In this document: piece by piece, positions 21,043-57,738 of the stretch
Numbering within the stretch: position 1 is the stretch's first letter
Layout: each line of letters starts with the position of its first letter
NCBI GenBank assembly: GCA_046537845.1
Contig: JBKHKA010000007.1
Coordinates: 1,249 to 65,248 of the forward strand
Direction: 5' to 3'
Length of the DNA stretch: 64,000 bases
Origin: Candidatus Aenigmatarchaeota archaeon
Lineage (GTDB): Archaea; Thermoplasmatota; Thermoplasmata; Halarchaeoplasmatales; Halarchaeoplasmataceae
Translations under genes and position numbers: made by a program
Notes under the pieces: generated by a model
Told to the model about the DNA's origin: nothing
The model's input: only the letters and a program-made list of their open reading frames with translations
Database searches by the model: none

Positions 21043-21149
21043 CCGAGAGACATCTACAGGGAAGTATAAATATTTTGGACTTGGACATTTAATTTCATTG
21101 GAAAACATTTAATACGATGAGTTCCCTTCTATCTTCTAGGTAGAAATAT

Positions 21150-26500: not shown

Positions 26501-26539
26501 AGATCTATTCAGTCTACGGGCAGATGGACTGCTCAACCC

Positions 26540-27364: not shown

Positions 27365-27517
27365 GATGTTTACCTTTTTGTTAAAGGAGAAAGTTCTTTA
27401 CTTTTAAGTTTTCGCACCTCCATCAATGGTTTTGAGTCATTTTGACCCCGACTTTGTGAGAAAGATTTATATTCAAAATCCTTTTTTATATGAGTGCGAG
27501 TTAGAGAGCAGAAATGT

Positions 27518-28006: not shown

Positions 28007-28527
28007 GACTTTTGGTCAGATCAAATAAGGGTCAATCGAGTCTTTTAGACGCATTGATATTTTTCAGCATCGCATTGATCGCTTCCGCGATCTTGATCTT
28101 CGCACCATTCCCTGGAAGCTCTCCGGAAACGAAGGAAGTGATGAGACTTTACGGTGAGAGTACTCTCGATTCTTACCTTCACTCGACTCTCAACCACACC
28201 TCCTACGAATACCAAAATGAAACGATCCATCTCGACGATAGAACGGTATCTGAATTGGTGGTGGAGAACCTATATCTGAGAGATAACACAGATGTGAATA
28301 ATGGCAGTTTGAGAGAGGGTATAGAGAGAGATCTCAATGAAACATTAGATGCTCTGGTCATATCACAATATGATTACAATTTTACCGCCTGGTCTTCTGA
28401 AAACGCTTCTTTCGGGTACGGCCAACAGACCAAAGGTGTGGATGAGATGAACTCCTTTTCACAAGATTTACACACACCGGATCAAAACGCGACCTATACT
28501 GCGAACCTCAAGATCTGGCTGGCGTGA
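28003..28527 (+). CDS. Small pilin-like protein (174 aa) with a class III signal-peptide-like N-terminus
   Basis: MRLLVRSNKG|QSSLLDALIFFSIALIASAILIFA has a basic leader, a G-Q junction and a hydrophobic helix. Its ATG overlaps the upstream stop as ATGA. Confidence 0.7.
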   Translation: MRLLVRSNKGQSSLLDALIFFSIALIASAILIFAPFPGSSPETKEVMRLYGESTLDSYLHSTLNHTSYEYQNETIHLDDRTVSELVVENLYLRDNTDVNNGSLREGIERDLNETLDALVISQYDYNFTAWSSENASFGYGQQTKGVDEMNSFSQDLHTPDQNATYTANLKIWLA

Positions 28528-28617
28528 GGATCGAACGTGAACCAAGATTCACCACCTAAAAGCGGAATACATAAATAATCATCCCAACAATTATGATATA
28601 ATAAAAGAGGTATAGTT

Positions 28618-32889: not shown

Positions 32890-32914
32890 AATAGAATGGT
32901 GAGGATACTCTTTT

Positions 32915-35900
32915 TTACTCTTCTTCATCCAGGTCGGCACCGCAGGCCCAACACTTATCCGCCCCGGGTTCTAGTTTATTATTGCAGACAGGACATTTTA
33001 TTTTCTCTTTCTCTTCAACTTCACCCTCAGTTTTTTCTTCAGACCCCGGCTGCTCTTCTTGGTCAAGTCCTGACCCTTTGTGGCTCCATATGCCTCCCGA
33101 GGAAACCTTATCAGACTCGGATTCTTCTTCCAGCATCTTCGTCACTTCATCCTCTAATTCCTCTTCACCTTCGCTCTCTTCATCATCCAATGCTGGGCCA
33201 ACGGGTTCAGATCCCACTTCTGATCCCGTGAAAGAGCTATCTGGTTTCTCCGTGGTGACGCCTTCTTCACTGAAAGATCTTACTTCCGCATAATCTCTTC
33301 CGCATCCTAGACACTCTCCTTCGACCATGAGACAATCGTTGTGGTAAGCATTTCCACACTGGCATTCTAAGCTGCTCTCGGGATCTATCGGGCTGTTGCA
33401 GATATCACAGTCTTTTGATGGCTTAGGCCGTGATTTGGAGGAATATATACCCATACCAGCAGCACCAGCCCTAGCCGCTCCGCTCTCACCCATATAGTTC
33501 CCGTCTTGAGGCCTAGGCGGTGAAGACCTTGATGAAGATGCCCTAGACGTAGAGACTCTAGTCGGTCTAGTCGATCTCTTTTTCTTTAGTGATTTCAATT
33601 TTTCGCCTTTTTTCTGCCTGATCTTGGAAAATTTCGATTCTTTAACCGGAAGCAGTTTTTCTTGTTCCTCCCGTCGCCTTTTCCAGTAAACGAATAACCC
33701 TATCAATATAACTGCGATAGGTATCGGGAGGAGATACCACCAATTTATCCCAACGGGGCCAACTTTGGTTTCTGACTGGTATTCGTTACCGGCGGCATCT
33801 TCTACAACGATCTGGTAATCCACATCACTGAATCCCACATCATCCCCTGATATAGTCGCCTTATACTCCCCACCGGCTCTTTTCATCTCCTTTTCTTTCC
33901 AACCGTCATCCTCTTCATATCTGAGGATAACTCTCTCTACGGAGCTCGCTCCACTGTCTATAGAAGCTGTCACGGTCATCTCGTTTTTCCAAACCGTATC
34001 CGAGGTGTCAAAGTCTTTCAAAGAGGGTGTGGTCAGATCTATCTTCAGCCACTCTGTTTTTCCTTCTTCGTTCAGGTTTCCCGCATTATCAAGTGCTCTT
34101 ACACCAAGATAGAACTGGCCTTCTCTATCGATCATAAAACTCCCTTGATATTCCTCCCAATCTCTATCTTCGCCCAATCTATACTGCAGTATCCTTACTC
34201 CTGATCCCCCTTCATCGTCAGCATATATCTTCACCTCGGGAGGAGCGTTATACCACCCGTTGCTATCGGGCTCGGAGATTTCGTATTTGATCTCAGGCTC
34301 CTGTGTATCTACTTTAATCTGAGATGTGTCGGCATTTTCTTCATCTGAGCTTTTCAGACCTGCATTGTTCTCGGCTAGATATTCTACGGTGTGTTCGCCG
34401 TTCTCAAGTTTTATCTCCACCACGTCAGATTCGGCTTTTTGCCATTCACCTGTTTCATCATCACTGATTATCCTGTACTTTATCGAAGACACTCCCGAGT
34501 TACCGTCCTCCGCGCTTATGTTGACCGCTGGCTCCTCTATATGCCAATCGTTTTCCCCCCCTGGGTTTGGAGAATTGAGTTCTACAGATGGAGCTGTTTT
34601 ATCAATCCTTATCACCTGGAGTTTTTCTTCTTCCACATTCCCTGCGGTGTCTACAGCCCTGTAATACAGACTGTTCTCCCCCTCTTCTCCTATGGTTATG
34701 CTTCCACCGTCACCCTCTATTTCCTCCCATCCCTCGCCTACTCGATATTCTATATGATCTACTCCTGAATAGCCGTCTTCAGAACTAAAGCTCACCTCTA
34801 CATCCCCTATGTACCAGCCATCTTCTCCCTCGGGGCCGTCCAAAGCCACATGAGTAGTGGGTTCGATAACATCTATCTTGAAGCTTTCATCATTTATATC
34901 TTCTTGATTTCCTCCATTATCTATGGAATAGAACTGAACCTCGTGGGTTCCGGAACCTGAAACAGTGGTACCGCCGCTGGCACCATCGATCTCCTGCCAC
35001 TCCCCATCGTCTATCTTGTACAATATACTGTCGACTCCTGAATGGGCGTCCTCCGCACTGAACTGTAGCTCGACATCGCTCCTGTACCAACCGTTCTGAG
35101 GACCCTCGCCTTGTAATGTAAGGGAAGTATCCGGCGGATCTTTATCTATGGTAAAGGAGTATTGATTGGATTTCTCTTCGTTCCCAGCCACGTCTACCGC
35201 ATATATGTAATACTCCACCTCGCTGCCTGCGTCCTGATCAGGGATATCACCGCTGTACTCGTCACCAGTTGTAGAATTCATTGGGCTGGCCTGCCAAACA
35301 CCTCCGTCGACCCTATACCTCACCTCGAGTGAATTCTCGTCGACCCCGCTGTGCTGGTCGGTTATCCTCGCCGTGATCGTATATGGGCCATAACCTTCCC
35401 ACCCTTCGACAGGATCGTGTTCTATCTCGGGAGAATATGTATCCTCCATGTATTCCACATTGACCTCGCTCAAAGAGGGCGTGATCTGCCCGTTCGATGT
35501 TTCAAAGGTGGCTCTGTACTGTATGTATCTGTCCACTGGACTCGGCACCTCACCACCGTTCGAGGCCTCTGCCCAATCTGACCAGCTGTTACCGTCGGGA
35601 GATGTCCTGGTCTCCATAGTGAGTGAAGTACCTGAAGGTTCATCCGCATCCCAGTGGATGGTACCCCAATCATACATCCCATCTCCGGTATCATAAACGC
35701 TTGATACTAAGGTTCCAGAATCCTCGTGGGTTTCGACTATCGCCTCCATGGTCGTTATCACATCGTCATCCGCCCAATCCATAGTTTGCGGACTCGTTGT
35801 GATCTCCCCATTATAATAGTATTGACCATTTTCTCCAGTGAAACCTACGGTGCTCAGATCTCCCAGTGTATATTGACCCAACTTGTCACCTCCCTGTACA

Positions 35901-36451
35901 GGGATGGGGAGTTGATCACTACTAGTATCCCAAGTCTTGATGGTCCAAGATTCTGGATCAAAGGTTTCAGTTTCAGCTGAAAAATATTCATCTTGGTTAC
36001 CTGTTGGGCGTAATATCTTGAGCTTGAAAGCAGAATGGCGGTCGGCACAGGTAACCGTGAATTCGATTATCTCACCACCTCGGTCGATATTGAAATCATC
36101 TCGACCTGGAAAAGTAGTATATCCAGGATCCCAATAATAATCGTCGTTAGGCGACTCCGCCGCTCCCACCTGAAACTCATACGTATCCAGCATCACTTCG
36201 CCTGAAGAAGTTGTGGTATCCAAATTTGTTAAGTCACCGGATTCAAAATCGGACTGTGTAGTCTGGGTCCATGTTTCCGTGGATAAGGGTTTCCGAGGTT
36301 TCTCAGCTGTTGGGGATACATTGATAGTTGAATTCTCCTGAGGAGTCGAAGCCGAGGAGGGCATGGACATAAAAACGACTAACCCTACAGAAGTCAATAA
36401 GATACCTATGGTTAGGATTATCAAGGATTTTTCGAACGATTTATTTTTCAT
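32915..36451 (-). CDS. Single-pass receptor/adhesin-like protein (1178 aa): signal peptide, N-terminal globular domain, six Ig-like repeats, TM helix, cytoplasmic C4HC3 zinc finger, acidic linker, terminal zinc ribbon
   Basis: Signal MKNKSFEKSLIILTIGILLTSVGLVVF. Repeats follow the consensus D-x-x-x-P...GWY...D-x-x-SGV...Y-R...W...AGN. TM helix WWYLLPIPIAVILIGLFVYW followed by KRRREEQE. Finger CDIC-x11-CQC-x4-H-x2-C-x6-CLGC. C-terminus CPVCNNKLEPGADKCWACGADLDEEE. Confidence 0.85.
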   Translation of the reverse strand: MKNKSFEKSLIILTIGILLTSVGLVVFMSMPSSASTPQENSTINVSPTAEKPRKPLSTETWTQTTQSDFESGDLTNLDTTTSSGEVMLDTYEFQVGAAESPNDDYYWDPGYTTFPGRDDFNIDRGGEIIEFTVTCADRHSAFKLKILRPTGNQDEYFSAETETFDPESWTIKTWDTSSDQLPIPVQGGDKLGQYTLGDLSTVGFTGENGQYYYNGEITTSPQTMDWADDDVITTMEAIVETHEDSGTLVSSVYDTGDGMYDWGTIHWDADEPSGTSLTMETRTSPDGNSWSDWAEASNGGEVPSPVDRYIQYRATFETSNGQITPSLSEVNVEYMEDTYSPEIEHDPVEGWEGYGPYTITARITDQHSGVDENSLEVRYRVDGGVWQASPMNSTTGDEYSGDIPDQDAGSEVEYYIYAVDVAGNEEKSNQYSFTIDKDPPDTSLTLQGEGPQNGWYRSDVELQFSAEDAHSGVDSILYKIDDGEWQEIDGASGGTTVSGSGTHEVQFYSIDNGGNQEDINDESFKIDVIEPTTHVALDGPEGEDGWYIGDVEVSFSSEDGYSGVDHIEYRVGEGWEEIEGDGGSITIGEEGENSLYYRAVDTAGNVEEEKLQVIRIDKTAPSVELNSPNPGGENDWHIEEPAVNISAEDGNSGVSSIKYRIISDDETGEWQKAESDVVEIKLENGEHTVEYLAENNAGLKSSDEENADTSQIKVDTQEPEIKYEISEPDSNGWYNAPPEVKIYADDEGGSGVRILQYRLGEDRDWEEYQGSFMIDREGQFYLGVRALDNAGNLNEEGKTEWLKIDLTTPSLKDFDTSDTVWKNEMTVTASIDSGASSVERVILRYEEDDGWKEKEMKRAGGEYKATISGDDVGFSDVDYQIVVEDAAGNEYQSETKVGPVGINWWYLLPIPIAVILIGLFVYWKRRREEQEKLLPVKESKFSKIRQKKGEKLKSLKKKRSTRPTRVSTSRASSSRSSPPRPQDGNYMGESGAARAGAAGMGIYSSKSRPKPSKDCDICNSPIDPESSLECQCGNAYHNDCLMVEGECLGCGRDYAEVRSFSEEGVTTEKPDSSFTGSEVGSEPVGPALDDEESEGEEELEDEVTKMLEEESESDKVSSGGIWSHKGSGLDQEEQPGSEEKTEGEVEEKEKIKCPVCNNKLEPGADKCWACGADLDEEE
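33310..33347. repeat. 38-nt block identical to 38234-38271 (zinc-finger coding region of the two paralogs)
   Basis: gacactctccttcgaccatgagacaatcgttgtggtaa is present at both positions, verified base by base. Confidence 0.95.
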
Positions 36452-36567
36452 ACGTCCGACTCCTTCTTTCGAATATATAATTTGTCTACGGTGGTAAATT
36501 ATATATGTGTCTTAGACTATATATGTTTTTTGTCCTTTTCGGGCACTTTTGTAAATCTCTATTCTTT

Positions 36568-37080
36568 TCAATCTTCAAAGATGAAAGTATGATATTGGGT
36601 CTCACCGCTGACTATCAATTCGCACCTCATCACTCTGAAACCCTCTCCTGAGACAAGATCAAGATAACGGTGCTCGTCATCGATCTCCGCAAGCTCCGTT
36701 TCGTTGGTGGTATAATTGATCTGTGATGGATCCCAAAGATGTACCCTTTCACTATCTTCAGCGGTGATATCGGATGATGCGAGTTTACCTTGCGCTTCAA
36801 GACTCACCTCACTAGAACTTATCCTGATCTCATATTCTTCCCCATCTATCTCCGATGGTAGTTCCACAGCGGAAGCGTTCTCCCTGAAGGTGAAATAAAG
36901 TGTAGAATTAGAATGGGTGTTAGAAAGTTCATTCACTCTAGAAGAAATCTCTTGAGAGAGGCTCTTTAACCTAGTTTCATCTATATCCTCTCTTGCAGCT
37001 GAAAAAACGAAGATTGAAAATATCACCAAAGCCATGGTGAAGATAGAGACGATGATTTTTGAAAGTGCCCAATCCAACAT
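36568..37080 (-). CDS. Small N-terminally anchored protein (170 aa); paralog of 6072-6605
   Basis: MLDWALSKIIVSIFTMALVIFSIFVF helix. Shared blocks with the 177-aa protein are listed under that feature. Start codon lies 1 nt after the upstream stop. Confidence 0.7.
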   Translation of the reverse strand: MLDWALSKIIVSIFTMALVIFSIFVFSAAREDIDETRLKSLSQEISSRVNELSNTHSNSTLYFTFRENASAVELPSEIDGEEYEIRISSSEVSLEAQGKLASSDITAEDSERVHLWDPSQINYTTNETELAEIDDEHRYLDLVSGEGFRVMRCELIVSGETQYHTFIFED

Positions 37081-37081
37081 C

Positions 37082-37618
37082 TTACCACTCTAATACATCC
37101 AGCTCGACATAGTAATCGTTTTCGACGCCGTCTTCATTCATATCGAAATCCGCGGGCTTTTTAACTATAGATATCCGCTGATTCCCTCCTGGGATTATCA
37201 GGGTATCGTTATCCGGCGAGCACATAGGGATGCCCTTACGACCGTGGGTGACTAATATCGATTTTTCAGGTTCCTCTCTGAGTTGATAATAGATGGCTCT
37301 TGTGTGAACAGAACCGGACAAAGGAGCACCCACCTTTACCTCTTCAGTCTCGGGAGGAAATTCTATTTCTAAAACCGTGCTCGCATTCACACCTTGGATA
37401 TACACGCTCTCCACGGCAGATGCTATCTGATTTACTTCTTGGGAGAGCTGTTCTTCTGCACTGTTAGTGCGGTAGTGAGACAGGGCGGAGAGCATAGACG
37501 GTATAGCTATAGCGAGTACGATAGCTATTATCAAAAGCCGGAAAGGATAATCCATAACTCCTTCTTCGGAGCGTTTCAAGTTCCTTGGATCGCATCTTTT
37601 CTTTTCTATTCCATCCAT
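37082..37618 (-). CDS. Small pilin-like protein (178 aa)
   Basis: Charged leader MDGIEKKRCDPRNLKRSEEG followed by VMDYPFRLLIIAIVLAIAIPSMLSAL and a beta-rich body. Confidence 0.65.
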   Translation of the reverse strand: MDGIEKKRCDPRNLKRSEEGVMDYPFRLLIIAIVLAIAIPSMLSALSHYRTNSAEEQLSQEVNQIASAVESVYIQGVNASTVLEIEFPPETEEVKVGAPLSGSVHTRAIYYQLREEPEKSILVTHGRKGIPMCSPDNDTLIIPGGNQRISIVKKPADFDMNEDGVENDYYVELDVLEW

Positions 37619-37637
37619 CTGATCTCAACCTCGTCTT

Positions 37638-40600
37638 TTATTCCTCTTCATCCAGGTCAGCACCGCAGGCCCAACACTTGTCTGCCCCTGGTTCTAGGTC
37701 GTTATTACATATCGGGCATTTTGTAGGACCTTTATCTTTATCTTCTTCTTCAGTGGATTCCTCCTCGATCGACTCCTTTTCCTCTTCTGACCTTTCATCT
37801 AAGTTTTCTTCGGGTTCTAGGTCTTCTTTGCCCCCTTCCTCTTCCTGCTCTTCATCTATCTCTTCATCCTTATCCTGTTCCATCTTTTCTTCTTGCTCAC
37901 TGACTTCACTCGGTTCTTCTTCCATGTCCTCAGCTTGCTCATCCTGCTCGACCCCCTCCTCCAACTCTTCTTCATCCTCAATCGTCTCGCTCTCTTCGGA
38001 CTCCATTTCATCTGAGGGTTCCTCTTCTTCTTTAGCTATCTCCTTCATCTCCTCTGCTTCTTTTTTGACTTTTTCTTCGGGCTCAGTACTGGTTTCGTCT
38101 GCTAATATCTTTATATCCGCTCCATCCTCGGTTGTCTCTTCGGTCTCCCCCCTCTCTTCCTCCTCAGTGCCTTCATCAGAACCTCCTTCTTCCGTGAAGG
38201 ATTTAACGGCCGCATAATCTCTTTCACATTCAGGACACTCTCCTTCGACCATGAGACAATCGTTGTGGTAAACGTTCCCGCATTCACATTTCAATCTACT
38301 CTCAGGATCGGTCGGGCTGTTACAGATGTCACAGTCTTCTGAAGACGTCTGTGAAAGAGCCGATACAGGCATCGTTTCCCCTCTAGCCCCTGGTGGAGGG
38401 GTGGAGGATCTACCACCGTTCCCTACGTCTGCCGTTCTTTCGGCTCGTTGACTCTTCAATTCTTTCAATTTCCTCCCTCTTTTCTCCCTGATTTTTGAAA
38501 ATTTAGATTCTTTTATAGGCATCAGTTTTTCGTGTTTTTCTCTGCGCTTTTTCCAGAACACAAAGAGAGCTAAAAGCACCACCGCGATGGGTATCGGTAC
38601 AAAGTACCACCAGTTTATGCCGACATCTGCTACCTTTGTCTCCGTTTCCTCGACATTTCCAGCTCCATCTCTCACCACTATACGATAGTCAACATCGCTG
38701 AAGCCCACTTCGCCGCCGGAGATGGTGGCGACATATTCCCCATTTTCTAAGTTCATCTCTTTTTCTTTCCAACCGTCTCCTGAGTCATATTCTAAGATGA
38801 CTCGATCGATGTCGGAGTTATAATCCTTCGCCTCCACAGAGACGGTGAGATCGTTTCTCCAAACCGTAGGACTCGATTCAGCAGATTCTATCCTGGGTCC
38901 TTCAAGATCCATAAGATATTCAAAATCCTCAATATATTCATTCCCCGCCTCGTCTTTTACGTATAATTCTACCTCTAGTTCACCCGACATGCTCACATCA
39001 AAAGTGGTGTTCATTTTACCGATATCACCTGAATTCTCACGTGTCTCATTCTCCCATTCTCCCCTCCTATTTATCCGACAACTCACTTCACTAACGCCGG
39101 ATAATTCGTCCTCGGAGTCCACAGAAATCGTACCTGGAGAATTTACCCATCCTTGCTCATAAGGTGGATCGGTTTCATAATATAGATCGGGAGAAGAGGT
39201 GTCCACTTTGATCTCTTTTTCATTCACCTCGCTTTCCCTACCAGCCTTATCTACACTGTGATATTCTACTGTATAAATACCGTCTTCAAGAGTTATCGTT
39301 TCCTGGTATTCTGACCATTCTTCCTCCCCATCTATCCTGTAATTGATGTGTGATACTCCAGATATATTATCCTGAGCATTCAATTCAACTTCGGGGGCGG
39401 TGACATACCATCCTTTGTTGCCTTCCTCGCCAAGGACCTCGGCAGATGCTTGAGGATCTTCCAGATCGATCTTGATCTGAGTCGTTCCTCTTTCTTCATT
39501 GCCGGCCCTATCGAAACACCGATACTCTAACTGAAACTCACCAGATTCATCCAGATCGATCTCGCTTTCATATGTACGCCATTCTTCTTCACCAAACCTG
39601 TACTCGATGGTTTCGATATCTGAGTTTTCGTCGGTGGCAGATATCTCTACCTGAACATCTTCAAGATACCATCCGTTCTCACCTGAAGGCTCAGGCTTTA
39701 TCACTTCCACCTCTGGTGGAGACATATCGATCTTCACCTCTACCGAGTCGACTCCCTCCTCGTTCCCGACCTGATCATCAGAATAGTATTCCACCTCGTA
39801 TATGCCAGATTGCTGCAGCTCGATGGGCTGAGCGTACTCTTCCCACCCATCATCGAGTCTGTACCACGTGGTACCCACCCCGGAGTCCCCATCACTTGCA
39901 TCCAATTGAACCTCTACTTGACTCGCAAACCACCCGTCGTCCCCCTCCTCGCCGGATAGCACGGGCTCCGTCTCCGGAGATTCCTTATCCACCTTGAAAG
40001 GATAATATTGATCCTCATCAGGAGATGTTGCCACTAACCCGGCTTCATTTTCCGCCTCGATATAGTACCTGACTTCAGTAGAGTGGTTAAGATCTGGTAT
40101 CTCGGTTTCATATAACTCATCACCTACCTGCCCCATGGTCAGTTCATTCCAGCTGCTGCCCTCATCGATGCTGTAGTAGGTGCTTGGGTTTTCGGCCAAT
40201 CCGCTCCCTCCGTCCTGGACACTCGCGGTGATGGTATAACCTCCCTCGGCCTGCCATTCATCCAAAGAGCTGTGCTCTATATCCGGAGGGTCTTCATCCA
40301 CTCGGTACTCTATACGGATGCTGTTCAAAGAAGGCGTTTCTCTGCCAGTTGCAGACGTGAAGGTCGCTCTGTACTGAATATATTGGTGAGTATCATCACC
40401 CGGGACGTTCCCCTCATTCTCAGCTTCCTCCCAGGATGTCCAATCCTGCCCGTTTGCGGAAGTCCTCGTTTCTATAGTCAGGTTCGATCCTTGAGGCACG
40501 TCGGCATCCCAACTTATGCTCTCCCACTCGTACATGTGCTGTCCCGCATCGTGCACGTTTGATTCATGAACGCCCTCGTCACGATGGGTTTCTACTTCAG

Positions 40601-41384
40601 CCTCCAAAGTGGTTATCGCGTCATCGTCGCTGATATGTCCCATCTCCGTAGGAGTACTAGTTACCTCCCCATCATGACTCCAATAACCATTGTTTCCAGT
40701 CAAAGCAACTGCAGCGATGTCGCCAAGTGCGTAAAGACTCAATCGATCTTCTTTTTCTATAGGTATATCCAGCCCGGTCCGTTCATTTATCTGCCCAGGG
40801 TTCAAGTTTGAAAAGATCTCTGATTGAGCCGCATAAAACTCGGCGCTCTCACCAGGGTTAACAGCATCTGGATCGGTGGGCCTGAGAACTTTCAGCTCTA
40901 TGTCTCCAGCTAGATCTGGGTCATCCCCCACATTTATCCTGAACTCTCTGATCTTGCCTCCTCTATCTGCTCTAAAATCATCCCTACAGCCGAGGAAAGT
41001 TGATCCCTTGGGCCAATAATAATATCCCCCTCTGCTCCCCTGTTCAGCCGCTTCAGCCGCCCCTATCTGGATCGTGTCAGTATCCAACTTTACCTTACCC
41101 GGCTCCGAATCGAGGTCTAGATCTTCGCTGTCCCCCTGTTTGAAGTCGCTCTGCGACCACTGCTCCCAAGAAGCTACGCTTTTGACTCCCTCCTCCTCTC
41201 TTGAGGGGAGATCTTCTTCCCTTGAAAAGAATGTTTTCGCTTCGGAGATACCTCCGTTAGCTAAAAAGGGCCCCCAAAACGAGAGCATCAAAAACACGAC
41301 TATGGCCGTGACAAAAATCAATGTGAATACGAAAGATAGTTCGGAAACAAAGCCGTTTTTCATTTTATCATCCATGGAAGCCAC
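37638..41384 (-). CDS. Single-pass receptor/adhesin-like protein (1248 aa), paralog of 32915-36451, with a longer acidic cytoplasmic linker
   Basis: N-terminal anchor LSFVFTLIFVTAIVVFLMLSFW, six Ig-like repeats, TM helix WWYFVPIPIAVVLLALFVFW (about 38553-38615) then KKRREKHE. Finger CDIC-x11-CEC-x4-H-x2-C-x6-CPEC (38226-38333). An ~160-aa E/D-rich tract. Terminal CPICNNDLEPGADKCWACGADLDEEE. Confidence 0.85.
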   Translation of the reverse strand: MASMDDKMKNGFVSELSFVFTLIFVTAIVVFLMLSFWGPFLANGGISEAKTFFSREEDLPSREEEGVKSVASWEQWSQSDFKQGDSEDLDLDSEPGKVKLDTDTIQIGAAEAAEQGSRGGYYYWPKGSTFLGCRDDFRADRGGKIREFRINVGDDPDLAGDIELKVLRPTDPDAVNPGESAEFYAAQSEIFSNLNPGQINERTGLDIPIEKEDRLSLYALGDIAAVALTGNNGYWSHDGEVTSTPTEMGHISDDDAITTLEAEVETHRDEGVHESNVHDAGQHMYEWESISWDADVPQGSNLTIETRTSANGQDWTSWEEAENEGNVPGDDTHQYIQYRATFTSATGRETPSLNSIRIEYRVDEDPPDIEHSSLDEWQAEGGYTITASVQDGGSGLAENPSTYYSIDEGSSWNELTMGQVGDELYETEIPDLNHSTEVRYYIEAENEAGLVATSPDEDQYYPFKVDKESPETEPVLSGEEGDDGWFASQVEVQLDASDGDSGVGTTWYRLDDGWEEYAQPIELQQSGIYEVEYYSDDQVGNEEGVDSVEVKIDMSPPEVEVIKPEPSGENGWYLEDVQVEISATDENSDIETIEYRFGEEEWRTYESEIDLDESGEFQLEYRCFDRAGNEERGTTQIKIDLEDPQASAEVLGEEGNKGWYVTAPEVELNAQDNISGVSHINYRIDGEEEWSEYQETITLEDGIYTVEYHSVDKAGRESEVNEKEIKVDTSSPDLYYETDPPYEQGWVNSPGTISVDSEDELSGVSEVSCRINRRGEWENETRENSGDIGKMNTTFDVSMSGELEVELYVKDEAGNEYIEDFEYLMDLEGPRIESAESSPTVWRNDLTVSVEAKDYNSDIDRVILEYDSGDGWKEKEMNLENGEYVATISGGEVGFSDVDYRIVVRDGAGNVEETETKVADVGINWWYFVPIPIAVVLLALFVFWKKRREKHEKLMPIKESKFSKIREKRGRKLKELKSQRAERTADVGNGGRSSTPPPGARGETMPVSALSQTSSEDCDICNSPTDPESRLKCECGNVYHNDCLMVEGECPECERDYAAVKSFTEEGGSDEGTEEEERGETEETTEDGADIKILADETSTEPEEKVKKEAEEMKEIAKEEEEPSDEMESEESETIEDEEELEEGVEQDEQAEDMEEEPSEVSEQEEKMEQDKDEEIDEEQEEEGGKEDLEPEENLDERSEEEKESIEEESTEEEDKDKGPTKCPICNNDLEPGADKCWACGADLDEEE
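38234..38271. repeat. 38-nt block identical to 33310-33347
   Basis: Same 38-mer as in the paralog. The 3'-terminal ~85 nt of the two genes (32915-33000 vs 37638-37723) are also about four-fifths identical by eye. Confidence 0.95.
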
Positions 41385-41554
41385 CTTTAGGATACCATCG
41401 GCCTCTCTACATTTACCTTAACAATATAGATAGGGAGGTAAATACTTAAAGATTTTGGGATAATGGGTTTTTAGCTGATAGTGCCTTGCTGCCACCTATT
41501 TTCCCTGATATAAAAAATAAAGGGAAAAGAGGTCCCTGTTCTGTCAATAGCACT

Positions 41555-42109
41555 TTAAGGTCTTTCGACCCATATGCTCGTTTGGACTGATTCGGTTCCG
41601 ATCAGACCTTCGTAGGAGGCCTCGATCTCTATCTTGGCGTGGTCCTCGTTTTGGCGCAGTCTGCAACCGTCTAAATCTAATTCCGCCTGACCTGTAGAGT
41701 TCGTCGTAGCAACTGCGCTAGCTCCGGCACCTTCTGCCTCTACGTCAACACCGGCCATCACATTACCGTCTTCATCATATATCGTTACAACCAAATATTC
41801 GTCGTATTCCTTCTCCGGTGGCAAGGTGTTGTCCGAATCATCCGGGTCGGGCCGTTCAGATCCCTTGTAATATGCTCTTCCATCTTCGTATAATTCCTCA
41901 CAGATCACACTTTCATGGGTTTCGTTAGTACCGTGTTGAACCTCGTGCACTCTGACGTCGTCTATCTTCGGCTCCGTTGTCACCATGAATCCCAGTATCG
42001 CCGCTAGGGAGACCGCCGCTATTATCACTATCAGCAGTATGTAGAGAGGTATGCCCATGATCTGGGCGTATTCGTCATCCTCTATTCTTCGGGGGGGTAG
42101 CGAGTCCAT
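41555..42109 (-). CDS. Small pilin-like protein (184 aa) with a beta-sandwich-like C-terminal domain
   Basis: Leader MDSLPPRRIEDDEYAQIMG, helix IPLYILLIVIIAAVSLAAILGFMV, and a C-terminal VVTIYDEDGNVMAGVDVEAEG...TTNSTGQAELDL resembling a CarboxypepD_reg-like fold. Confidence 0.65.
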   Translation of the reverse strand: MDSLPPRRIEDDEYAQIMGIPLYILLIVIIAAVSLAAILGFMVTTEPKIDDVRVHEVQHGTNETHESVICEELYEDGRAYYKGSERPDPDDSDNTLPPEKEYDEYLVVTIYDEDGNVMAGVDVEAEGAGASAVATTNSTGQAELDLDGCRLRQNEDHAKIEIEASYEGLIGTESVQTSIWVERP

Positions 42110-42171
42110 TTTTTCTTACCTCATTATTATCCAATACGGTCAAACAATATATATTTTGCTGTGTATCTCTC

Positions 42172-44196
42172 CTACACCATCCCGCCCAATAAGGACTCAG
42201 TAAATAACAGCGAAATAGTGTAAAGCAGCATAGAGACAGGGAGGATCCTCACCACGTTCATCTTCCGACTGGCCCAATCCTCCCCGCTCTCGATACCGAC
42301 CGTGAAATAAACCGTCAGGAGAACGAGGGTTATGAGGTAGATCCCCACGACCATGGAAAATGTGAAACCCGCTATGGGTACCTCTTCACCTATTATACGA
42401 CCGGCCATCCCGGCCAACGGCCCCTCCAATTCGATCTGAGCGAAATAATTCGAAAGTATTACGTAAAGGACCGCGGTCACCCCCATGACAAGGGGAGCGA
42501 TGAATTGGGCGGTGACTTTCATCATCCCTGTTATCTCCGTCAACCTGCTCTTCATCTCCTCTTCGATGTTCTGAAGTTCGGTCAGGTATCCAGATATCCT
42601 CACCAAAGTATCTCCTGCGGTCTCCGGATCTTTTTTTATCGCCCTAGATATCATGGTAGTTGTAGCTTTGATCATCTGTGAGGGATTCTTTTCCAGAACT
42701 CCTCCTCTACCGAATAACACATCTGAAAGCGATTTCCTCGTGACATGTAGTGAATAAGAGATCTTCTCGAAAAGGACACTGATACTGGAGGAATGTATAC
42801 TCTCAGAAACTTTTTCGAAGGCCCTTTCCGGCGGGTCTCCTCTACTTATATATCCTCCAAGATGAAAGAGGGCGTTCGGAAAGTTGTTCTCCATCTCCAA
42901 TATGTTATCTCTCTGCTTATAAGGGAAGTACGATGTGAAGAAGCAGTATATGGTTATGGCCGCCGCGATGCCCCACAAGGGGAGCAGTGATATCAGATAA
43001 GAGTGATCGGGTCTCAAGTAAAATCCCAAGAAGACCAGAGTGCCCCCTACTCCCAGCGAAGCCCCTATAACGGCATATTTTTCGCGGTCCGTTAGAAGAT
43101 CGGAAAGTGAGAGAGGTGCTCTCATGGTCGGGCGGTATCCCAATATGTGGATCGAATATATCAAAAATCCGAGAGGTATCACCACGTTTAGAACGAAAAT
43201 TATGAGTTCAGCAGCAGTTTCTCCGATCGCCAATACAGGTAAAAGAGCGGCCAACAACAGCGGCAGGATACTCCCCAAAGAAAAGAGGCTCATCGCTGGG
43301 ACGGTCAAAGATTCCGCAAAATTCCTCATCTTATTCTCGGTACCTTTCACGGCTATATCGTTGGCTTTTTCCAAGCTCGCAGTGACTTCCTCCTGCGTCT
43401 CTTTATGGGCTGCGTTCCGCAGCGTGTATAAACTCCTTCTGAACTCTTCACTCCACTTCCCCCATTCATCGGCGAAGGCTATCAGGGAGTCTTCGATCTT
43501 TGTGTGTTTCCTCATCTCTACGTCCCATATTATCCTTCTTAATTCAGAGGACAGAGGTTCTTCGACGCTGTCGGCGGCATACTCTATCGCCCTTGACAGA
43601 TTGGGAGTCAAGGACATAGCCATTACCATGTAATTGATGGCCTCAGGCATGCGCCCTATCGATTTGGCTCTTCTCCTCTTAGCCATATAGTTCGGTATAT
43701 TCATGACCAAAGCGATAGCAAGGATGGGCAAGATTATGACAGGCATCAGGGTGGTCAATTTGAACAGGAAGGGTATGTCCGTGAAAAAGAGGGTGTAAAG
43801 AGAAGCTACCAAGGATATCAAGAAAACTATCATACCCACGAAGTAAGCAAGATATCTGACTTCGAAGGGTTCTGCGTCTATCTGGGCGAACTTTATCGAG
43901 CTCTTGAACTCATCCTTTTCAAGCTTTTCTTTTTCTATCTCGTGGTCTCTTAATGCGAGTTCATAACGCTGTTTCGCCCTTTTAAATATTGGACTACCAG
44001 GAGGATGTTTCTTTCGGATCTCTTTGAACTTCTCCTTTTCCTCCTCAAACTTCCGATCGAGTTCTTTGTCTTTCTCTTTGCGCCTCTCCTGTCTTTCCTG
44101 CCTCTTCTCAGATAGGTCCAATTGAAAAAGGGCGCTCGCAAATTTGCAACCTTTCGTGAAATAACCTTGGCTTTGTGTTTGATCCATCGAAGGCAT
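42172..44196 (-). CDS. Type IV pilus/archaellum-type polytopic platform protein (FlaJ/TadC, T2SS-F family) (674 aa)
   Basis: An N-terminal K/E-rich cytoplasmic segment followed by about 8-9 TM helices arranged as two repeats with cytoplasmic helical bundles. Lies immediately downstream (1 nt) of the ATPase gene. Confidence 0.75.
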   Translation of the reverse strand: MPSMDQTQSQGYFTKGCKFASALFQLDLSEKRQERQERRKEKDKELDRKFEEEKEKFKEIRKKHPPGSPIFKRAKQRYELALRDHEIEKEKLEKDEFKSSIKFAQIDAEPFEVRYLAYFVGMIVFLISLVASLYTLFFTDIPFLFKLTTLMPVIILPILAIALVMNIPNYMAKRRRAKSIGRMPEAINYMVMAMSLTPNLSRAIEYAADSVEEPLSSELRRIIWDVEMRKHTKIEDSLIAFADEWGKWSEEFRRSLYTLRNAAHKETQEEVTASLEKANDIAVKGTENKMRNFAESLTVPAMSLFSLGSILPLLLAALLPVLAIGETAAELIIFVLNVVIPLGFLIYSIHILGYRPTMRAPLSLSDLLTDREKYAVIGASLGVGGTLVFLGFYLRPDHSYLISLLPLWGIAAAITIYCFFTSYFPYKQRDNILEMENNFPNALFHLGGYISRGDPPERAFEKVSESIHSSSISVLFEKISYSLHVTRKSLSDVLFGRGGVLEKNPSQMIKATTTMISRAIKKDPETAGDTLVRISGYLTELQNIEEEMKSRLTEITGMMKVTAQFIAPLVMGVTAVLYVILSNYFAQIELEGPLAGMAGRIIGEEVPIAGFTFSMVVGIYLITLVLLTVYFTVGIESGEDWASRKMNVVRILPVSMLLYTISLLFTESLLGGMV

Positions 44197-44197
44197 T

Positions 44198-46018
44198 TCA
44201 GAAACTCTCCTGGAACCATCTTTCCCAATCTTCTACAAGCTTATCGTAATCCACTGAACCATACTCTTCCAATTGCCATTCCAACATGTGCCAAAATTTG
44301 GTGTTGTATTCAGGCACATAGTCGGCTTCCAACAGTTCCAATCTGCCCTCTTCCCGGGCCCTCTCCACCACAGCGGATTTCACAAGTGCCCTAGCACGGA
44401 TGTTTTCTTCCGCCTCTTCCATCGACATATCCCAATCGTCCGCTATTTTGGTCAGCAGCTCTGAAGACTCTCCAAAGTAGTCTGTCTTTTCCAATGTGTC
44501 ATTTTCGGGAGAGTACAGCATCAGATCGTTGAACAGATCATCACCTCTATCCAAACCTATATCTGCATCTACAGTGGAGGGTACGGCATCTTTTCTCACC
44601 TCGGATATCTGGGTCGTTTTTCTCACCAGCCGGTGTAATCCTTTAGGCCGTCTGTAGTTCACCATTATCACCCCGTCGGTAGCTGCGAAAGATTTCGGGG
44701 GTATATTCAAGTCGTAAACAACTCTTTCGTAAACCGCCTTCGGAGAATCCGCATGGATGGTGCCCATGACGGCACTGCCCGCTGTACCTGCTCTCATAGC
44801 TTCGTACAAAGTCCTAGCTTCTTCACCTCTGACCTCACCCATGACTATGGCCGATTCACCTAACCTCAATGACACGCGCAGCGATTCTTCGGCCGACATC
44901 TCGCCGAGGCCGCCGATTCCGCTGGATTGGACATGCATGGACTGGACTTTGTAACCTTCCTCCTTGAGGGACGAACAAGGCAATTCTAACGTATCCTCTA
45001 TGGTAACGATCCGTTGACTCGGAGGGAATTCAAACATCAAGGCCGCCGCAAGTGACGTCTTACCGGCACTCCTTGGACCCGCGACCAATAAAGTCGCATT
45101 GCCGTCGATCAAGAAGGACAGGAGACCGGCAGATAGGGGTGAAATACTTCCCTGATATATCAATCTCAAAAGTGTCCATGGATTCGGAGAGTGCCTCCTG
45201 AAAGTTATCGAGACCCCTTCAGGCGAGAGAGGTTCGCCTATCACCGTAGCCCTGGTTTTGTACTCCGGAAGACTGCATTCGAGAACCGGTCTAGCCTCGG
45301 AGAACGCTCTGCCGCTCTCATACTGCAGCCTCGATATGATCGAGTCAGCACTGTCTTTTGTCAGAGTTATGTTAGTTACACATTTAGATGGTAGAGATTT
45401 ATCCAGGCCGGTAGAAGAGATTATAGTATATATCTGGCTTTCTTCTACAGGTGCATCTATGTAAACGTCCGTGGTCCTGGTATCTCTCAATAATATCTCG
45501 ACTATCCCAAGACCGACGGTGTATCTTGAAAGGATATTCGATAACATCCTGACCCTCGCCAATTCCTCTGAACGGGTGCGTCCCAGATTGACTCCTTCGA
45601 TGTTCGCGTACTTGTATATCAATCTGTGGCCTTGTTTCTTTGCGTATTCCCTGATGAAAGTGGGCCGATGACCTTTTTCTTTCCCTGGATAATGGTCCAG
45701 TATCTCCTCTCGTGCGAGGGTTATTATTTTTTTCTGGCCGGGCGGCAGAGTGTACTCAAGGGGTTCCACGTGGTAGAGTGTTTCAGTTTCTCCCGGCAGC
45801 CTGTAGAGGGTGATCCGGGTTTCTTCTACCAAATATTCTTTTACCTTCTGGGCACCCGGGGGAGGATTGAGAACAATCCAGGAAGAAGAGAATTTGGGTT
45901 TGACCCGCTGGTACGACTCGAATATGCTGCTGAATTTTCTCTTTAGATCGTGATCGACTTTGCTTTTCACCAGCGATCCTCTATCTGATATCGGGCCGGT
46001 TTCTGCTTCCATTTTCAT
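44198..46018 (-). CDS. Type II/IV secretion-family ATPase (FlaI/PilB/VirB11-like) (606 aa)
   Basis: Walker A LVAGPRSAGKTS, Asp box IVTIEDTLEL, Walker B AIVMGEVRGEEA and His box GTIHADS, plus a long N-terminal domain. Confidence 0.88.
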   Translation of the reverse strand: MKMEAETGPISDRGSLVKSKVDHDLKRKFSSIFESYQRVKPKFSSSWIVLNPPPGAQKVKEYLVEETRITLYRLPGETETLYHVEPLEYTLPPGQKKIITLAREEILDHYPGKEKGHRPTFIREYAKKQGHRLIYKYANIEGVNLGRTRSEELARVRMLSNILSRYTVGLGIVEILLRDTRTTDVYIDAPVEESQIYTIISSTGLDKSLPSKCVTNITLTKDSADSIISRLQYESGRAFSEARPVLECSLPEYKTRATVIGEPLSPEGVSITFRRHSPNPWTLLRLIYQGSISPLSAGLLSFLIDGNATLLVAGPRSAGKTSLAAALMFEFPPSQRIVTIEDTLELPCSSLKEEGYKVQSMHVQSSGIGGLGEMSAEESLRVSLRLGESAIVMGEVRGEEARTLYEAMRAGTAGSAVMGTIHADSPKAVYERVVYDLNIPPKSFAATDGVIMVNYRRPKGLHRLVRKTTQISEVRKDAVPSTVDADIGLDRGDDLFNDLMLYSPENDTLEKTDYFGESSELLTKIADDWDMSMEEAEENIRARALVKSAVVERAREEGRLELLEADYVPEYNTKFWHMLEWQLEEYGSVDYDKLVEDWERWFQESF

Positions 46019-46070
46019 TCATCTCCAATATTCCTCAATATCTAATCGAGCCTTACTTTCCGTTATAAAA

Positions 46071-46703
46071 TCATTCTGTGGAGGATCCAACTCCTATCTC
46101 TCTCATGGTCATCTTATACAGCTTTTCGTACTCCTTTTTCAGATAATCCAAGTCCTCTAGAGTGGAGTAAGTACATTCCTCACATTCTGAATGAGTGTTG
46201 GAAGACCTGTCTATCTCCCGGACCACTCTGTTGAATTCAGCTTCATATTTTCCTATTCCCTGGGTGAATTTAGTGTATAATCTGGAGAACACGTTGGAAG
46301 GATTGAATCTGCATCCGTGACATTTGAGTTTTTTCTTATCTTTGTTATCTAGATAATCAAAGTATTTTTCCACAGGATCTCTCATCGTGAAATCTTCGAT
46401 GCTGTCCATAAAATCCACTAGGTTGTTCAGTACTTCCATGGATGGACCGAAGTACTCCGTATCCTCGTAGTGAGATAACACAACTGTATCGAGTCCCATC
46501 TCTTCTGACATTATCGTGAGGACAGAAGTGAGGCATTCCTGATCGTTCAGGGATGGTGCCTTGTCACAGTCTGTACATTCGAGCACTAATCGTTTTTTCG
46601 AGCCGCTTTGATCTATATGATAATCACATCTGAAGGCTTCTTCTTCTTCATCATCCCCTCCCAACCCGATCAATTCTTTCATACCTTTTGTTTTCTCGGC
46701 CAT
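46071..46703 (-). CDS. Cys-rich hypothetical protein (210 aa), first gene of the pilus-like operon
   Basis: Good ORF with acidic composition. Cys pairs CTDC, CHGC and CEEC plus single Cys residues suggest metal binding. No family recognised. Confidence 0.6.
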   Translation of the reverse strand: MAEKTKGMKELIGLGGDDEEEEAFRCDYHIDQSGSKKRLVLECTDCDKAPSLNDQECLTSVLTIMSEEMGLDTVVLSHYEDTEYFGPSMEVLNNLVDFMDSIEDFTMRDPVEKYFDYLDNKDKKKLKCHGCRFNPSNVFSRLYTKFTQGIGKYEAEFNRVVREIDRSSNTHSECEECTYSTLEDLDYLKKEYEKLYKMTMREIGVGSSTE

Positions 46704-46837: not shown

Positions 46838-47458
46838 ATGGATACCTTCGCCCACATCACCATCCCTCTGCTGATATTGTTAGCACTGAGGGTCCATACC
46901 CGGAAAGTTCTATTGATGCTGCCGTTCACCGTGGTGATGGATCTGGATTTCTTCTTTCCGGGGGCTCACAGGCTCCTGTTTCACAATCTCATCATAGTGT
47001 TAGTGCTGCCCATCTTTATAATCATATATTTGGACAAATATTTCCCCAGATACAGGCAGTACGGCTTGATAGCTTTCTTTTATCTGGTCTCGCATTTCAT
47101 CTTGGATCTAGGCGTGGGGATGGCGATCTTTTACCCTCTCACCACTGACTACTACTTCTTCGAAGCCGAGATGTTCTTCCAGTTTTGGGGCCCACTTCCG
47201 ATCCCGGATCTTTCACTCGATTACGGTATCATGGTGGCTGAAGAGACCCAGATAGTCAGTGAAGGTATGAGTGCGGGTGATACCGCCACCCAATACTCCA
47301 GCGTTTCCAATATATCTTCTGGCCTGTTCCTGACCTTGGTGGTGGCCGCCTTGATGTACTACGAAAAGAGTTTTACATTCTTGAAAGAGATCTGGAAACT
47401 GCTTGTAGATATCAAAGATTTCTTCCTCGAAAAACTCAGGTCCATTTTCAAACTGTAG
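46838..47458 (+). CDS. Membrane-bound metal-dependent hydrolase-like protein (YdjM/DUF457-like) (206 aa)
   Basis: MDTFAHITIPLL N-terminus, HRLLFHN and SHFILDL motifs, 4-5 TM helices. Confidence 0.5.
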   Translation: MDTFAHITIPLLILLALRVHTRKVLLMLPFTVVMDLDFFFPGAHRLLFHNLIIVLVLPIFIIIYLDKYFPRYRQYGLIAFFYLVSHFILDLGVGMAIFYPLTTDYYFFEAEMFFQFWGPLPIPDLSLDYGIMVAEETQIVSEGMSAGDTATQYSSVSNISSGLFLTLVVAALMYYEKSFTFLKEIWKLLVDIKDFFLEKLRSIFKL

Positions 47459-57737: not shown

Positions 57738-57738
57738 G

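Follow-up and report, generated by a model that had tools for sequence, protein, structure and literature searches.

Eleven genes on two convergent strands of a 64,000-nucleotide (nt) stretch of archaeal contig JBKHKA010000007.1 (GenBank assembly GCA_046537845.1; the whole stretch is called the window below) probably encode a type IV filament (TFF) machine, which we place in the Thermoplasmata branch of subclade 4F. The large Sec-dependent proteins encoded among the filament genes would be lineage-specific, co-expressed adhesins or S-layer-like proteins, and the likely function is adhesion to surfaces or cells. The machinery comprises a secretion ATPase, a platform protein with nine predicted membrane helices and a Cys-rich ATPase partner, surrounded by a set of pilin-like proteins.

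An earlier sequence-only reading had described eight minus-strand genes separated by gaps of 1-170 nt. All eight were recovered, with intergenic gaps of 52, 1, 62, 170, 19, 1 and 116 nt. The comparison of gene order which that reading had proposed as a check finds the same order in related loci from metagenome-assembled genomes (MAGs; L006, L007, L010, L011 and L090, at 61-100% protein identity), and because of this conservation we regard the eight genes as real. The earlier reading had ended the locus at window position 32915, which is wrong: a convergent plus-strand operon at 27494-32889, with genes for pilin-like proteins of 170, 176 and 1423 amino acids (aa), belongs to it as well. In L090 the entire eleven-gene arrangement is conserved, including the flank of cyanophycin genes. 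As the pilin-like families also recur beside the ATPase in varied arrangements, we take 27494-46703 as the functional unit. Its genes are listed here; the 1248-aa and 1178-aa proteins are called BIG-1 and BIG-2, and the pilin-like families a, b and C (plus strand) and c, d and e (minus strand). In the N-terminal motifs a bar separates position -1 from +1.

46071-46703, minus strand: Cys-rich acidic cytoplasmic protein, 210 aa, putative zinc-binding ATPase partner; eight invariant Cys; fused forms in relatives
44198-46018, minus strand: PilB/ArlI-superfamily secretion ATPase, 606 aa; Pfam T2SSE 5e-16
42172-44196, minus strand: TadC/PilC/ArlJ-like polytopic platform, 674 aa; borderline T2SSF; nine predicted membrane helices
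41555-42109, minus strand: pilin-like protein c, 184 aa, with leader, hydrophobic helix and immunoglobulin (Ig)-like domain, candidate filament subunit; family N-terminus [RK]G|xxxG(L/I)PLY
37638-41384, minus strand: BIG-1, large bitopic surface protein, 1248 aa; OmpL47-type repeats, transmembrane helix, Cys-rich tail
37082-37618, minus strand: pilin-like protein d, 178 aa; N-terminus SEEG|VMDYPFRLLII
36568-37080, minus strand: membrane-anchored protein e, 170 aa, without leader; MLDW, then a membrane helix
32915-36451, minus strand: BIG-2, large bitopic surface protein, 1178 aa, paralog of BIG-1; 42% identity to BIG-1
28618-32889, plus strand: giant pilin-like protein C, 1423 aa, candidate tip adhesin, convergent with BIG-2; N-terminus DDRG|KIPFALVGVVLIIL; Pfam DUF7286
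27997-28527, plus strand: pilin-like protein b, 176 aa; N-terminus SNKG|QSSLLDALIFF
27494-28006, plus strand: pilin-like protein a, 170 aa; N-terminus DDRG|VVGFYEDVPALLIVV

Eighty loci with relatives of the ATPase were fetched from species-representative genomes, their open reading frames (ORFs) were called, and one iterated hidden Markov model (HMM) was used per window protein; family counts are given out of 83 ATPase-carrying loci. The platform was found in all 83, families c and d, which cross-match, in 36, a in 23, e in 19, b in 16 and C in 10, while the count of 82 for the Cys-rich protein is inflated, as explained below. The pilin-like families are present in varied arrangements even in lineages whose ATPase is only 44-50% identical to that of the window (for example L001, L047, L069, L077 and L087). 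A crude look for TATA boxes found TATA-like boxes about 28 nt upstream of the BIG-2 gene and of the a gene, and an oligo-T run follows the c gene; this weak evidence hints at several transcription units. A scan for sigma-70 promoters and terminators was not used, being inapplicable to archaea. A Ser-rich 210-aa ORF on the plus strand (37585-38217) was rejected as a gene, since it is the antisense shadow of the Glu/Asp-rich tail of BIG-1.

ATPase, platform and Cys-rich partner

The ATPase carries the motifs GPRSAGKT, IEDTLELP, IVMGEVRGEEA and GTIHA, and the residues of its Walker A, Asp-box, Walker B and His-box are invariant over 21 homologs. Its assignment to the FlaI/PilB family, for which the sequence-only reading had quoted the first and third of these motifs, agrees with the T2SSE match. 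Homologs are about 50% identical throughout Thermoplasmata, and among more than 2000 detectable relatives every labelled one comes from Thermoplasmata or Thermoplasmatota. The protein falls below every NCBIfam equivalog cut-off (bits obtained/bits required: FlaI, NF058587, 104/550; BasE, NF053672, 70/1000; VirB11, 85/250). Its top NCBIfam match is a TadA-family 'conjugal transfer-associated' ATPase, with 126 bits versus a cut-off of 373, and the TrbB model, like that of VirB11, also matches below its cut-off.

The platform gene lies 1 nt from the ATPase gene and adjoins it in 83 loci. Its product matches Pfam T2SSF at the borderline (24.2 bits versus a cut-off of 25.2; 3.4e-5) and shares 26% identity across 545 aa (E 1e-46) with the platform of a Haloterrigena locus discussed below, annotated 'secretion system protein', so that the FlaJ/TadC-like identity proposed earlier holds. 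Some single MAGs contain two paralogous pairs of ATPase and platform, about 46% identical to each other (L075 with L009, L074 with L011, L034 with L016). A gene for a protein of about 172 aa comes before the second pair, and no recognisable pilin-like genes lie near it. These paired paralogs therefore suggest an old duplication within Thermoplasmatota.

The Cys-rich protein has eight invariant cysteines (C26/C43/C46/C57 and C128/C131/C174/C177), whose CxxC pairs make zinc binding plausible. An HMM built from stand-alone forms only aligns in its full length with the N-terminal parts of 17 longer ATPases from the fetched loci (740-860 aa) and of 12 ATPases among the database matches P0001-P0120, with E-values of 1e-24 to 1e-51 for both sets; Cys-rich protein and ATPase thus exist as a gene fusion in many relatives. 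This split-or-fused pattern argues for the Cys-rich protein being a direct functional partner of the ATPase. The count of 82 of 83 loci obtained with the iterated HMM is unreliable, because that profile had absorbed fusions and hence scored plain ATPases; we relied on the stand-alone-only model, and 24 stand-alone ORFs were confirmed. A word-indexed homology search with the Cys-rich protein returned six close relatives only. An AlphaFold2 (AF2) model shows an alpha/beta lobe followed by long helices (predicted local distance difference test, pLDDT, 77.6; predicted template modelling score 0.73). Foldseek found no PDB neighbour of this model at E<0.001, and HP0958-like proteins were not among the matches.

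Where this machine belongs was addressed with a neighbour-joining tree of 207 ATPase core columns (200 bootstraps, sparse sampling). In this tree the Thermoplasmata ATPases are monophyletic and, with the ATPase of Haloterrigena turkmenica pHTUR04, make up a clade in 200/200 bootstraps. The FlaI of S. acidocaldarius and the GspE of A. fulgidus (afGspE) fall outside that clade, FlaI being excluded in 200/200. Phylogeny against ArlI, also proposed in the earlier reading, thus sets the family apart from the archaellum, and because of the sparse sampling the tree excludes the archaellum more firmly than it fixes the subclade. Core identities run in the same direction, with about 40-42% to the pHTUR04 protein and about 32% to FlaI, afGspE and CpaF. 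Among annotated relatives in the plasmid collection the pHTUR04 ATPase ranks first, and its N-terminus is Cys-rich. Its locus also encodes a divergent 175-aa protein with the N-terminus DDRA|IEGLPIRLVI, which matches the c/d profiles (hmmsearch 1.7e-11, hhalign 94-95%; hhalign probability with c 93.7%).

Published surveys provide a name for this class. Subclade 4F of Makarova, Koonin and Albers (2016; PMC4858521) corresponds to TFF subsystem 4F of Sivabalasarma and Albers (2026; bioRxiv 10.64898/2026.04.22.720090). It was described as having a Cys-rich N-terminal domain on the ATPase, a nine-helix TadC, euryarchaeal-type pilins, frequent S-layer-like proteins and a small intracellular accessory protein (PMC4858521). 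In the supplementary tree of the 2016 study, the only Methanomassiliicoccales ATPases included (Mx1201, BRNA1) adjoin a group of halobacterial arCOG01818 and Methanocella proteins whose loci are labelled 4F (PMC4858521). The halobacterial group holds one Haloterrigena ATPase (gi 284176147; PMC4858521), which is presumably the pHTUR04 protein and would make the latter a 4F member. The window ATPase family includes Methanomassiliicoccales MAGs (L054, L085), whose ATPases are probably orthologs of those of Mx1201 and BRNA1. Since the Methanomassiliicoccales ATPases adjoin the 4F group in the published tree, we infer that the locus represents the Thermoplasmata branch of a 4F-like class.

The sequence-only reading had found no match of the cargo to the named archaeal pili and had called the composition undescribed. 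The first part is correct for the Bas system, given the BasE score, and for Epd, given the single platform gene, and the core nevertheless matches the 4F description. The second part was overstated, as this core is published and the ATPase family is present throughout Thermoplasmata.

Pilin-like proteins and the two large paralogs

A conserved G/A at -1, in most cases with a basic residue at -2, stands before the hydrophobic helix in families a, b, C, c and d; the clearest class III-like N-termini of the whole locus are those of the plus-strand proteins a, b and C. Protein a begins DDRG|VVGFYED before its hydrophobic helix, and in its family the G is invariant (16/16) and followed by VAGFFE(D/E). 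In the b family G occupies -1 in 12/16 members and D occupies +6 in 14/16. Protein C begins DDRG|KIPFALVGVV, with the family motif G|(R/K)(I/V/L)P(F/Y). The c family shows [RK]G|xxxG(L/I)PLY and the d family RG|(V/I/M)EG(L/F)P, where the proline is invariant (17/17). Family e begins M-x-D-W without a leader, the W being present in 10/11 members. A charged leader followed by a hydrophobic helix had earlier been ascribed to all three small minus-strand proteins; this fails for e, and c has a Y at -2.

Profile comparisons tie some of these families together. According to hhalign, c and d are related with a probability of 98.3%, and d and a with 96%, the latter over the N-terminal region only. Weak Pfam matches were obtained for c (Big_1 and CarboxypepD_reg), for d (DUF7311, in the window protein and one distant family member) and for e (DUF7266, in two distant members), and the N-terminus of C matches DUF7286 above the cut-off (30.7 versus 27). 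A literature search on DUF7286, DUF7266 and DUF7311 found nothing. The c gene usually directly follows the platform gene, and the C family adjoins the ATPase in 10 loci, distant ones included (L060, L069, L070, L087). No PilA-type or arCOG02911-type pilin was recognised in the locus, and the 1423-aa C protein had no match by tblastn against plasmids. Three Methanomassiliicoccales-like MAG loci (L049, L061 and L077, at about 3.5-9.1 kilobases (kb) in each) encode a 1792-aa protein with a d-family pilin-like N-terminus directly upstream of the ATPase. Judged by this N-terminus, it is an independent instance of a giant protein on a predicted pilin-type anchor.

BIG-1 and BIG-2 are of a different kind. 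As read earlier, they are paralogs (42% identity over 1045 aa). Both have a Sec-type N-terminus, not a class III one; the sequence KNG|F at the N-terminus of BIG-1 was considered as a class III site and rejected, as it is not conserved among orthologs. An all-beta region of about 300 aa comes first. A fold assignment for this N-domain was discarded (AF2 pLDDT 60.3; Foldseek TM about 0.2 with a root mean square deviation of about 19 Å, 'generic beta-sandwich' only). OmpL47-type Ig-like domains cover four stretches of BIG-1 (5e-55) and five of BIG-2 (1e-56). The OmpL47-type repeat model NF047446 scores 189 and 184 bits in the two proteins against a cut-off of 40, and the full-length OmpL47 equivalog NF047441 stays below its cut-off (146 and 119 bits versus 250). 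A single C-terminal membrane helix (925-943 in BIG-1, 904-922 in BIG-2) is followed by a WK(R/K)RRE stretch, as the positive-inside rule predicts for cytoplasmic tails, which here have 256 or 305 aa and in BIG-1 are acidic. Each tail contains 11 cysteines, out of 12 in all of BIG-2 and 14 in all of BIG-1. They form a C4HC3 pattern, CxxC-x13-CxC-x4-H-x2-C-x7-CxxC, in both paralogs, plus a terminal zinc ribbon. Profile scores for the tails lie below the cut-offs (PHD 20 versus 24; Prok-RING_1 19-23.5 versus 29.1), yet such sub-threshold matches to PHD, Prok-RING_1 and zf-RING_2 recur across tail homologs, one of which NCBI names 'PHD finger domain-containing'. The earlier label 'receptor-like' thus suits an architecture of ectodomain, one membrane helix and cytoplasmic zinc-finger tail.

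These domains have known counterparts. With 4-5 OmpL47-type domains the ectodomains resemble bacterial surface adhesins of the Leptospira OmpL47/Big_13-repeat kind, from which the archaeal proteins differ in being bitopic, with a beta-sandwich N-domain, a C-terminal helix and a cytoplasmic zinc-finger tail. The C4HC3 spacing of the tail is that of prokaryotic RING/PHD-like binuclear treble-clef fingers (Pfam Prok-RING_1, PHD); the sub-cut-off scores and the unusual setting, the cytoplasmic tail of a giant surface protein in a pilus operon, set it apart. A side observation concerns Aciduliprofundum MAR08-339 (NC_019942, 9588-14750; Table S4 of the 2016 survey), where a 1720-aa 'Zn-ribbon domain containing' membrane protein (arCOG01917) is encoded convergently with clade 2 pilus ATPase genes. 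Giant zinc-ribbon membrane proteins encoded near archaeal pilus genes may have a precedent in it.

The large proteins are rare. Full-length homologs form about five clusters, all from halophilic Thermoplasmatota MAGs, and the helix-plus-finger module has 12 matches at E≤1e-3 among 1.84 billion representative proteins, most of them near the C-terminus of proteins of about 1000-1300 aa. BIG-1 orthologs occur in L005, L010 and L011. By this distribution the large proteins are a recent lineage-specific insertion in a few halophilic MAGs and not a defining part of the machine. Large proteins as such are recurring neighbours: N-terminally anchored ones are 3.5-fold enriched within five genes of the ATPase family (24/632 versus 4/359 genes, p=0.015), and a protein sharing the BIG N-domain (E 4e-54) adjoins the ATPase in the independent lineage L031. 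We read BIG-1 and BIG-2 as filling, in their lineage, a recurrent 'large surface protein' slot. A slot for large adhesin-like proteins has already been noted for several TFF subsystems in published censuses (PMC4858521; bioRxiv 10.64898/2026.04.22.720090).

Proposed filament assembly and competing explanations

By analogy with better known filaments, a hexameric PilB-type ATPase and its zinc-binding Cys-rich partner would drive the nine-helix platform. A class III signal peptidase, assumed to be encoded elsewhere, would trim the a-d and C proteins beforehand; the platform would then pull the pilin-like proteins from the membrane, and the subunits would polymerise into a surface filament. The 184-aa c protein with its Ig domain is the best locus-encoded candidate for the filament subunit, a, b, d and e may be minor or priming subunits, and the 1423-aa C protein with its pilin-type N-terminus is a candidate filament-borne adhesin. 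As is usual for 4F, the gene of a PilA-type major pilin may lie outside the locus. BIG-1 and BIG-2 would be membrane-anchored adhesins or envelope proteins whose zinc-finger tails lie in the cytoplasm. A more daring and quite improbable version has them work as outside-in couplers, in which the Ig-like ectodomain senses contact and the tail docks on the Cys-rich partner or the ATPase N-terminus and so gates filament assembly; in a variant the tail recruits a ubiquitin-like or other protein-modification system. If true, an archaeal adhesin-receptor would be connected straight to the motor of a type IV filament.

Another view of the large proteins takes them for unrelated passengers: their genes would be those of ordinary surface glycoproteins or adhesins that came to lie in a permissive intergenic slot, tied to the filament neither physically nor by regulation. 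We hold this to be unlikely and still give it some weight. The large proteins are absent from L002/L013, where the ATPase is 80% identical and the operon stops after the gene for a 183-aa pilin-like protein; L011 has one copy only; a third paralog (P0132, L091) sits between unrelated genes away from pilus genes; and in P0167 the tail module is joined to a different ectodomain. The TATA-like boxes and the oligo-T run in the 170-nt and 116-nt gaps also suggest, weakly, that the genes have promoters of their own. Speaking for a connection are the interleaved order, kept in several MAGs down to 61-64% protein identity, the N-domain protein beside the ATPase in L031, the enrichment of large anchored proteins near the ATPase family and the d and e genes, which come after BIG-1 with gaps of just 19 nt and 1 nt. 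As the large proteins are missing from L002/L013 and a third paralog lies elsewhere, their functional tie to the pilus is tentative.

The giants could, on the other hand, be what the machine handles. Giant surface proteins are recurring variable neighbours of the ATPase family, and the locus encodes several small pilin-like proteins with no PilA-type major pilin recognised among them. Such a composition would also fit a pseudopilus-type secretion or display system, comparable to bacterial type II secretion or the Sulfolobus bindosome, that exports or positions giant proteins. The published remark that 4F major pilins usually have their genes at other places in the genome (PMC4858521) counts in its favour too. 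With ordinary Sec-type signals and a C-terminal membrane anchor the large proteins need no dedicated exporter, substrate-binding proteins with class III signals are absent from the locus, and the BasE model scores 70 of 1000 bits, so we consider this reading improbable. Very improbable is an archaellum operon with divergent components. Its ATPase and platform are indeed distant homologs of ArlI and ArlJ, but the FlaI equivalog reaches only 104 of 550 bits, FlaI branches outside the family in 200/200 bootstraps, and no archaellin, FlaF/G, FlaH, FlaCDE or FlaX families were detected among the scanned window ORFs (Pfam/NCBIfam), in line with the earlier statement that the locus is not an archaellum and shows no archaellin, FlaH or FlaF/G. 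Just as hard to credit is a module for conjugation, type IV secretion or DNA transfer carried by an integrated mobile element, as hinted by the 'conjugal transfer-associated' match and those to VirB11 and TrbB: the scores are far below the cut-offs (126/373, 85/250), the scanned ORFs yielded no VirB4, VirD4, relaxase or integrase, the housekeeping flanks are conserved in relatives and the GC content is unremarkable.

The reading of a 4F-type adhesion filament has to answer for several further points that weigh against it, in addition to the patchy occurrence of the large proteins. The organism is known from MAGs only. Strict FlaFind-type patterns are not matched by several N-termini, the window c protein having an uncharged residue at -2 and e lacking a leader, and all Pfam matches of the small proteins lie below the cut-off. 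The 4F placement draws on one haloarchaeal sequence, a sparse neighbour-joining tree and the reading of a published one, and the Cys-rich family aligns weakly with the N-terminus of the Haloterrigena ATPase (hhalign probability 25%). Finally, no Peptidase_A24 (class III signal peptidase PibD/FlaK) is found among the scanned ORFs of the 64-kb window, as the sequence-only reading had also noted; since the genes of class III peptidases in archaea usually lie in another part of the genome, this absence says little. The 206-aa polytopic neighbour at 46838-47458 was considered as a prepilin peptidase and rejected, with only a weak YdjM match and none to A24.

Genomic setting and relation to known systems

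The window ATPase has an identical database counterpart with the label Candidatus (Ca.) Natronoplasma sp., a member of Ca. Halarchaeoplasmatales. Labels of database proteins identical to window products conflict, BIG-2 being identical to one labelled 'Ca. Aenigmatarchaeota archaeon' and the ATPase relatives all being Thermoplasmatota. The order is known from MAGs as 'salt-in' halophiles of soda-saline lakes (PMC11332174), a lifestyle that the very acidic proteins of the locus fit. Its members were described from MAGs as heterotrophs degrading carbohydrates and organic acids (PMC11332174), and nothing points to the host-attached lifestyle that had been suggested as one possible use of the apparatus. 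The locus is chromosomal DNA and not a mobile element, because its flanks are housekeeping genes conserved in relatives and the GC content is flat over it.

Some neighbours merit mention. A cyanophycin synthetase (898 aa, TIGR02068, 982 bits versus a cut-off of 850) adjoins a cyanophycinase (274 aa, TIGR02069, 230 versus 126.6) at 23804-27364, and the same pair borders the pilus locus in L090; cyanophycin metabolism is, to our knowledge, uncommon among archaea. The minus strand of this Thermoplasmatota genome carries, at 19513-21108, the gene of a seryl-tRNA synthetase that belongs to the rare methanogen type (NF002120 544 bits, just below the cut-off of 611; serS_MJ 301 bits) and, at 18405-18513, a 109-nt tRNA that probably contains an intron (Rfam 53.5 bits; missed by ARAGORN). 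A minus-strand ORF of 1845 aa (667-6204) with one N-terminal hydrophobic segment and no Pfam/NCBIfam match may be a further giant surface protein, and a 482-aa protein (62515-63963, minus strand) with a GLUG motif, a GOLD-like domain and a C-terminal membrane helix is likely a surface protein too. A minus-strand cluster at 55834-58602, about 9 kb away from the pilus genes, encodes membrane proteins with DUF58 and DUF4129. Gene sets associated with vWA/MoxR have been proposed as regulators of archaeal type IV pili.

Published censuses of type IV filaments in archaea cover Thermoplasmatota poorly. The present locus and about 80 related ones define a phylum-wide module composed of a Cys-rich partner (separate or fused), an ATPase, a nine-helix platform and five pilin-like families. 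This module can serve as an annotation template for 'hypothetical' genes in marine, sediment and hypersaline Thermoplasmata. The fusions predict a direct interaction of the Cys-rich protein with the ATPase, and the rare zinc-finger tails could show how archaea link surface adhesins to filament machines. The advance is incremental, because the organisms are uncultured and adhesins in pilus loci are an already recognised theme.

Among the known systems, the archaellum (ArlB, ArlF/G/H, ArlI, ArlJ) shares with the locus an ATPase and a platform of the ArlI and ArlJ superfamilies; it differs by its archaellin, stator and ArlH, which are lacking here, and by a FlaI score far below the cut-off. The bindosome (Bas) differs in its ATPase, as the BasE score shows, and in the sugar- or substrate-binding proteins, of which this locus encodes none. 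The Epd or System 1 pilus has two platform genes and the dedicated peptidase EpdA, in contrast to the one 674-aa platform gene here and no A24 peptidase. From conjugative type IV secretion systems and Tad the locus is separated by ATPase models that all score far below their cut-offs, and by the absence of any other type IV secretion family among the scanned ORFs.

Closer is euryarchaeal clade 2 or System 2, represented by PilB3C3 with PilA1-6 of Haloferax volcanii and by the PilB4 locus type, which likewise combines an ATPase, a single TadC and a number of pilin-like proteins, not all of which carry class III motifs. PilB3C3 has been shown to act in adhesion. afGspE (2OAP), which we take to be a clade 2 member, is only about 32% identical to the window ATPase in the core and branches apart. 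The ATPases of Aciduliprofundum have 545-550 aa and lie beside split TadC genes, and for the same reason we rejected the idea that the DHVE2-group loci are the Aciduliprofundum clade 2 loci. Clade 2 or System 2 loci often include 'large adhesin-like proteins' (bioRxiv 10.64898/2026.04.22.720090).

The nearest match is 4F. The published example from Haloarcula hispanica reads arCOG07564 (a coiled-coil protein), arCOG10216, the arCOG01818 ATPase, the arCOG01814 TadC and arCOG04673, with further pilin arCOGs; the pilin arCOGs of 4F as a whole are 02981, 10216, 04673, 05165-7, 06291 and 03360 (PMC4858521). In the 2026 census, subsystem 4F is listed with an adhesin-like protein, and several further TFF subsystems with large proteins of this kind (bioRxiv 10.64898/2026.04.22.720090). 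Common to 4F and the present family are an ATPase of about 600 aa with a Cys-rich N-terminal module, here fused or encoded just upstream, a single nine-helix platform gene, a small acidic cytoplasmic protein whose gene lies immediately upstream, a number of pilin-like genes of the euryarchaeal type and, as frequent neighbours, large proteins that resemble S-layer proteins or adhesins. Unlike in 4F, the Cys-rich module of the window is a separate 210-aa gene product with eight invariant Cys that is not recognisably arCOG07564. The pilin-like families match the haloarchaeal DUFs 7311, 7266 and 7286 weakly, and the cytoplasmic RING/PHD-like tails of the large proteins have not been described for 4F. 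The lineage differs as well: the 2016 set contained just two Methanomassiliicoccales ATPases from the phylum, with no pilin set described for them. We know of no 4F system that has been characterised experimentally. The class itself was thus already catalogued, though uncharacterised, and is widespread in Thermoplasmata, and pilus loci with large adhesin-like proteins are a familiar theme. What the present locus adds is the anatomy specific to Thermoplasmata, with its split Cys-rich partner and five pilin-like families, and the rare zinc-finger-tailed giants of one halophilic lineage.

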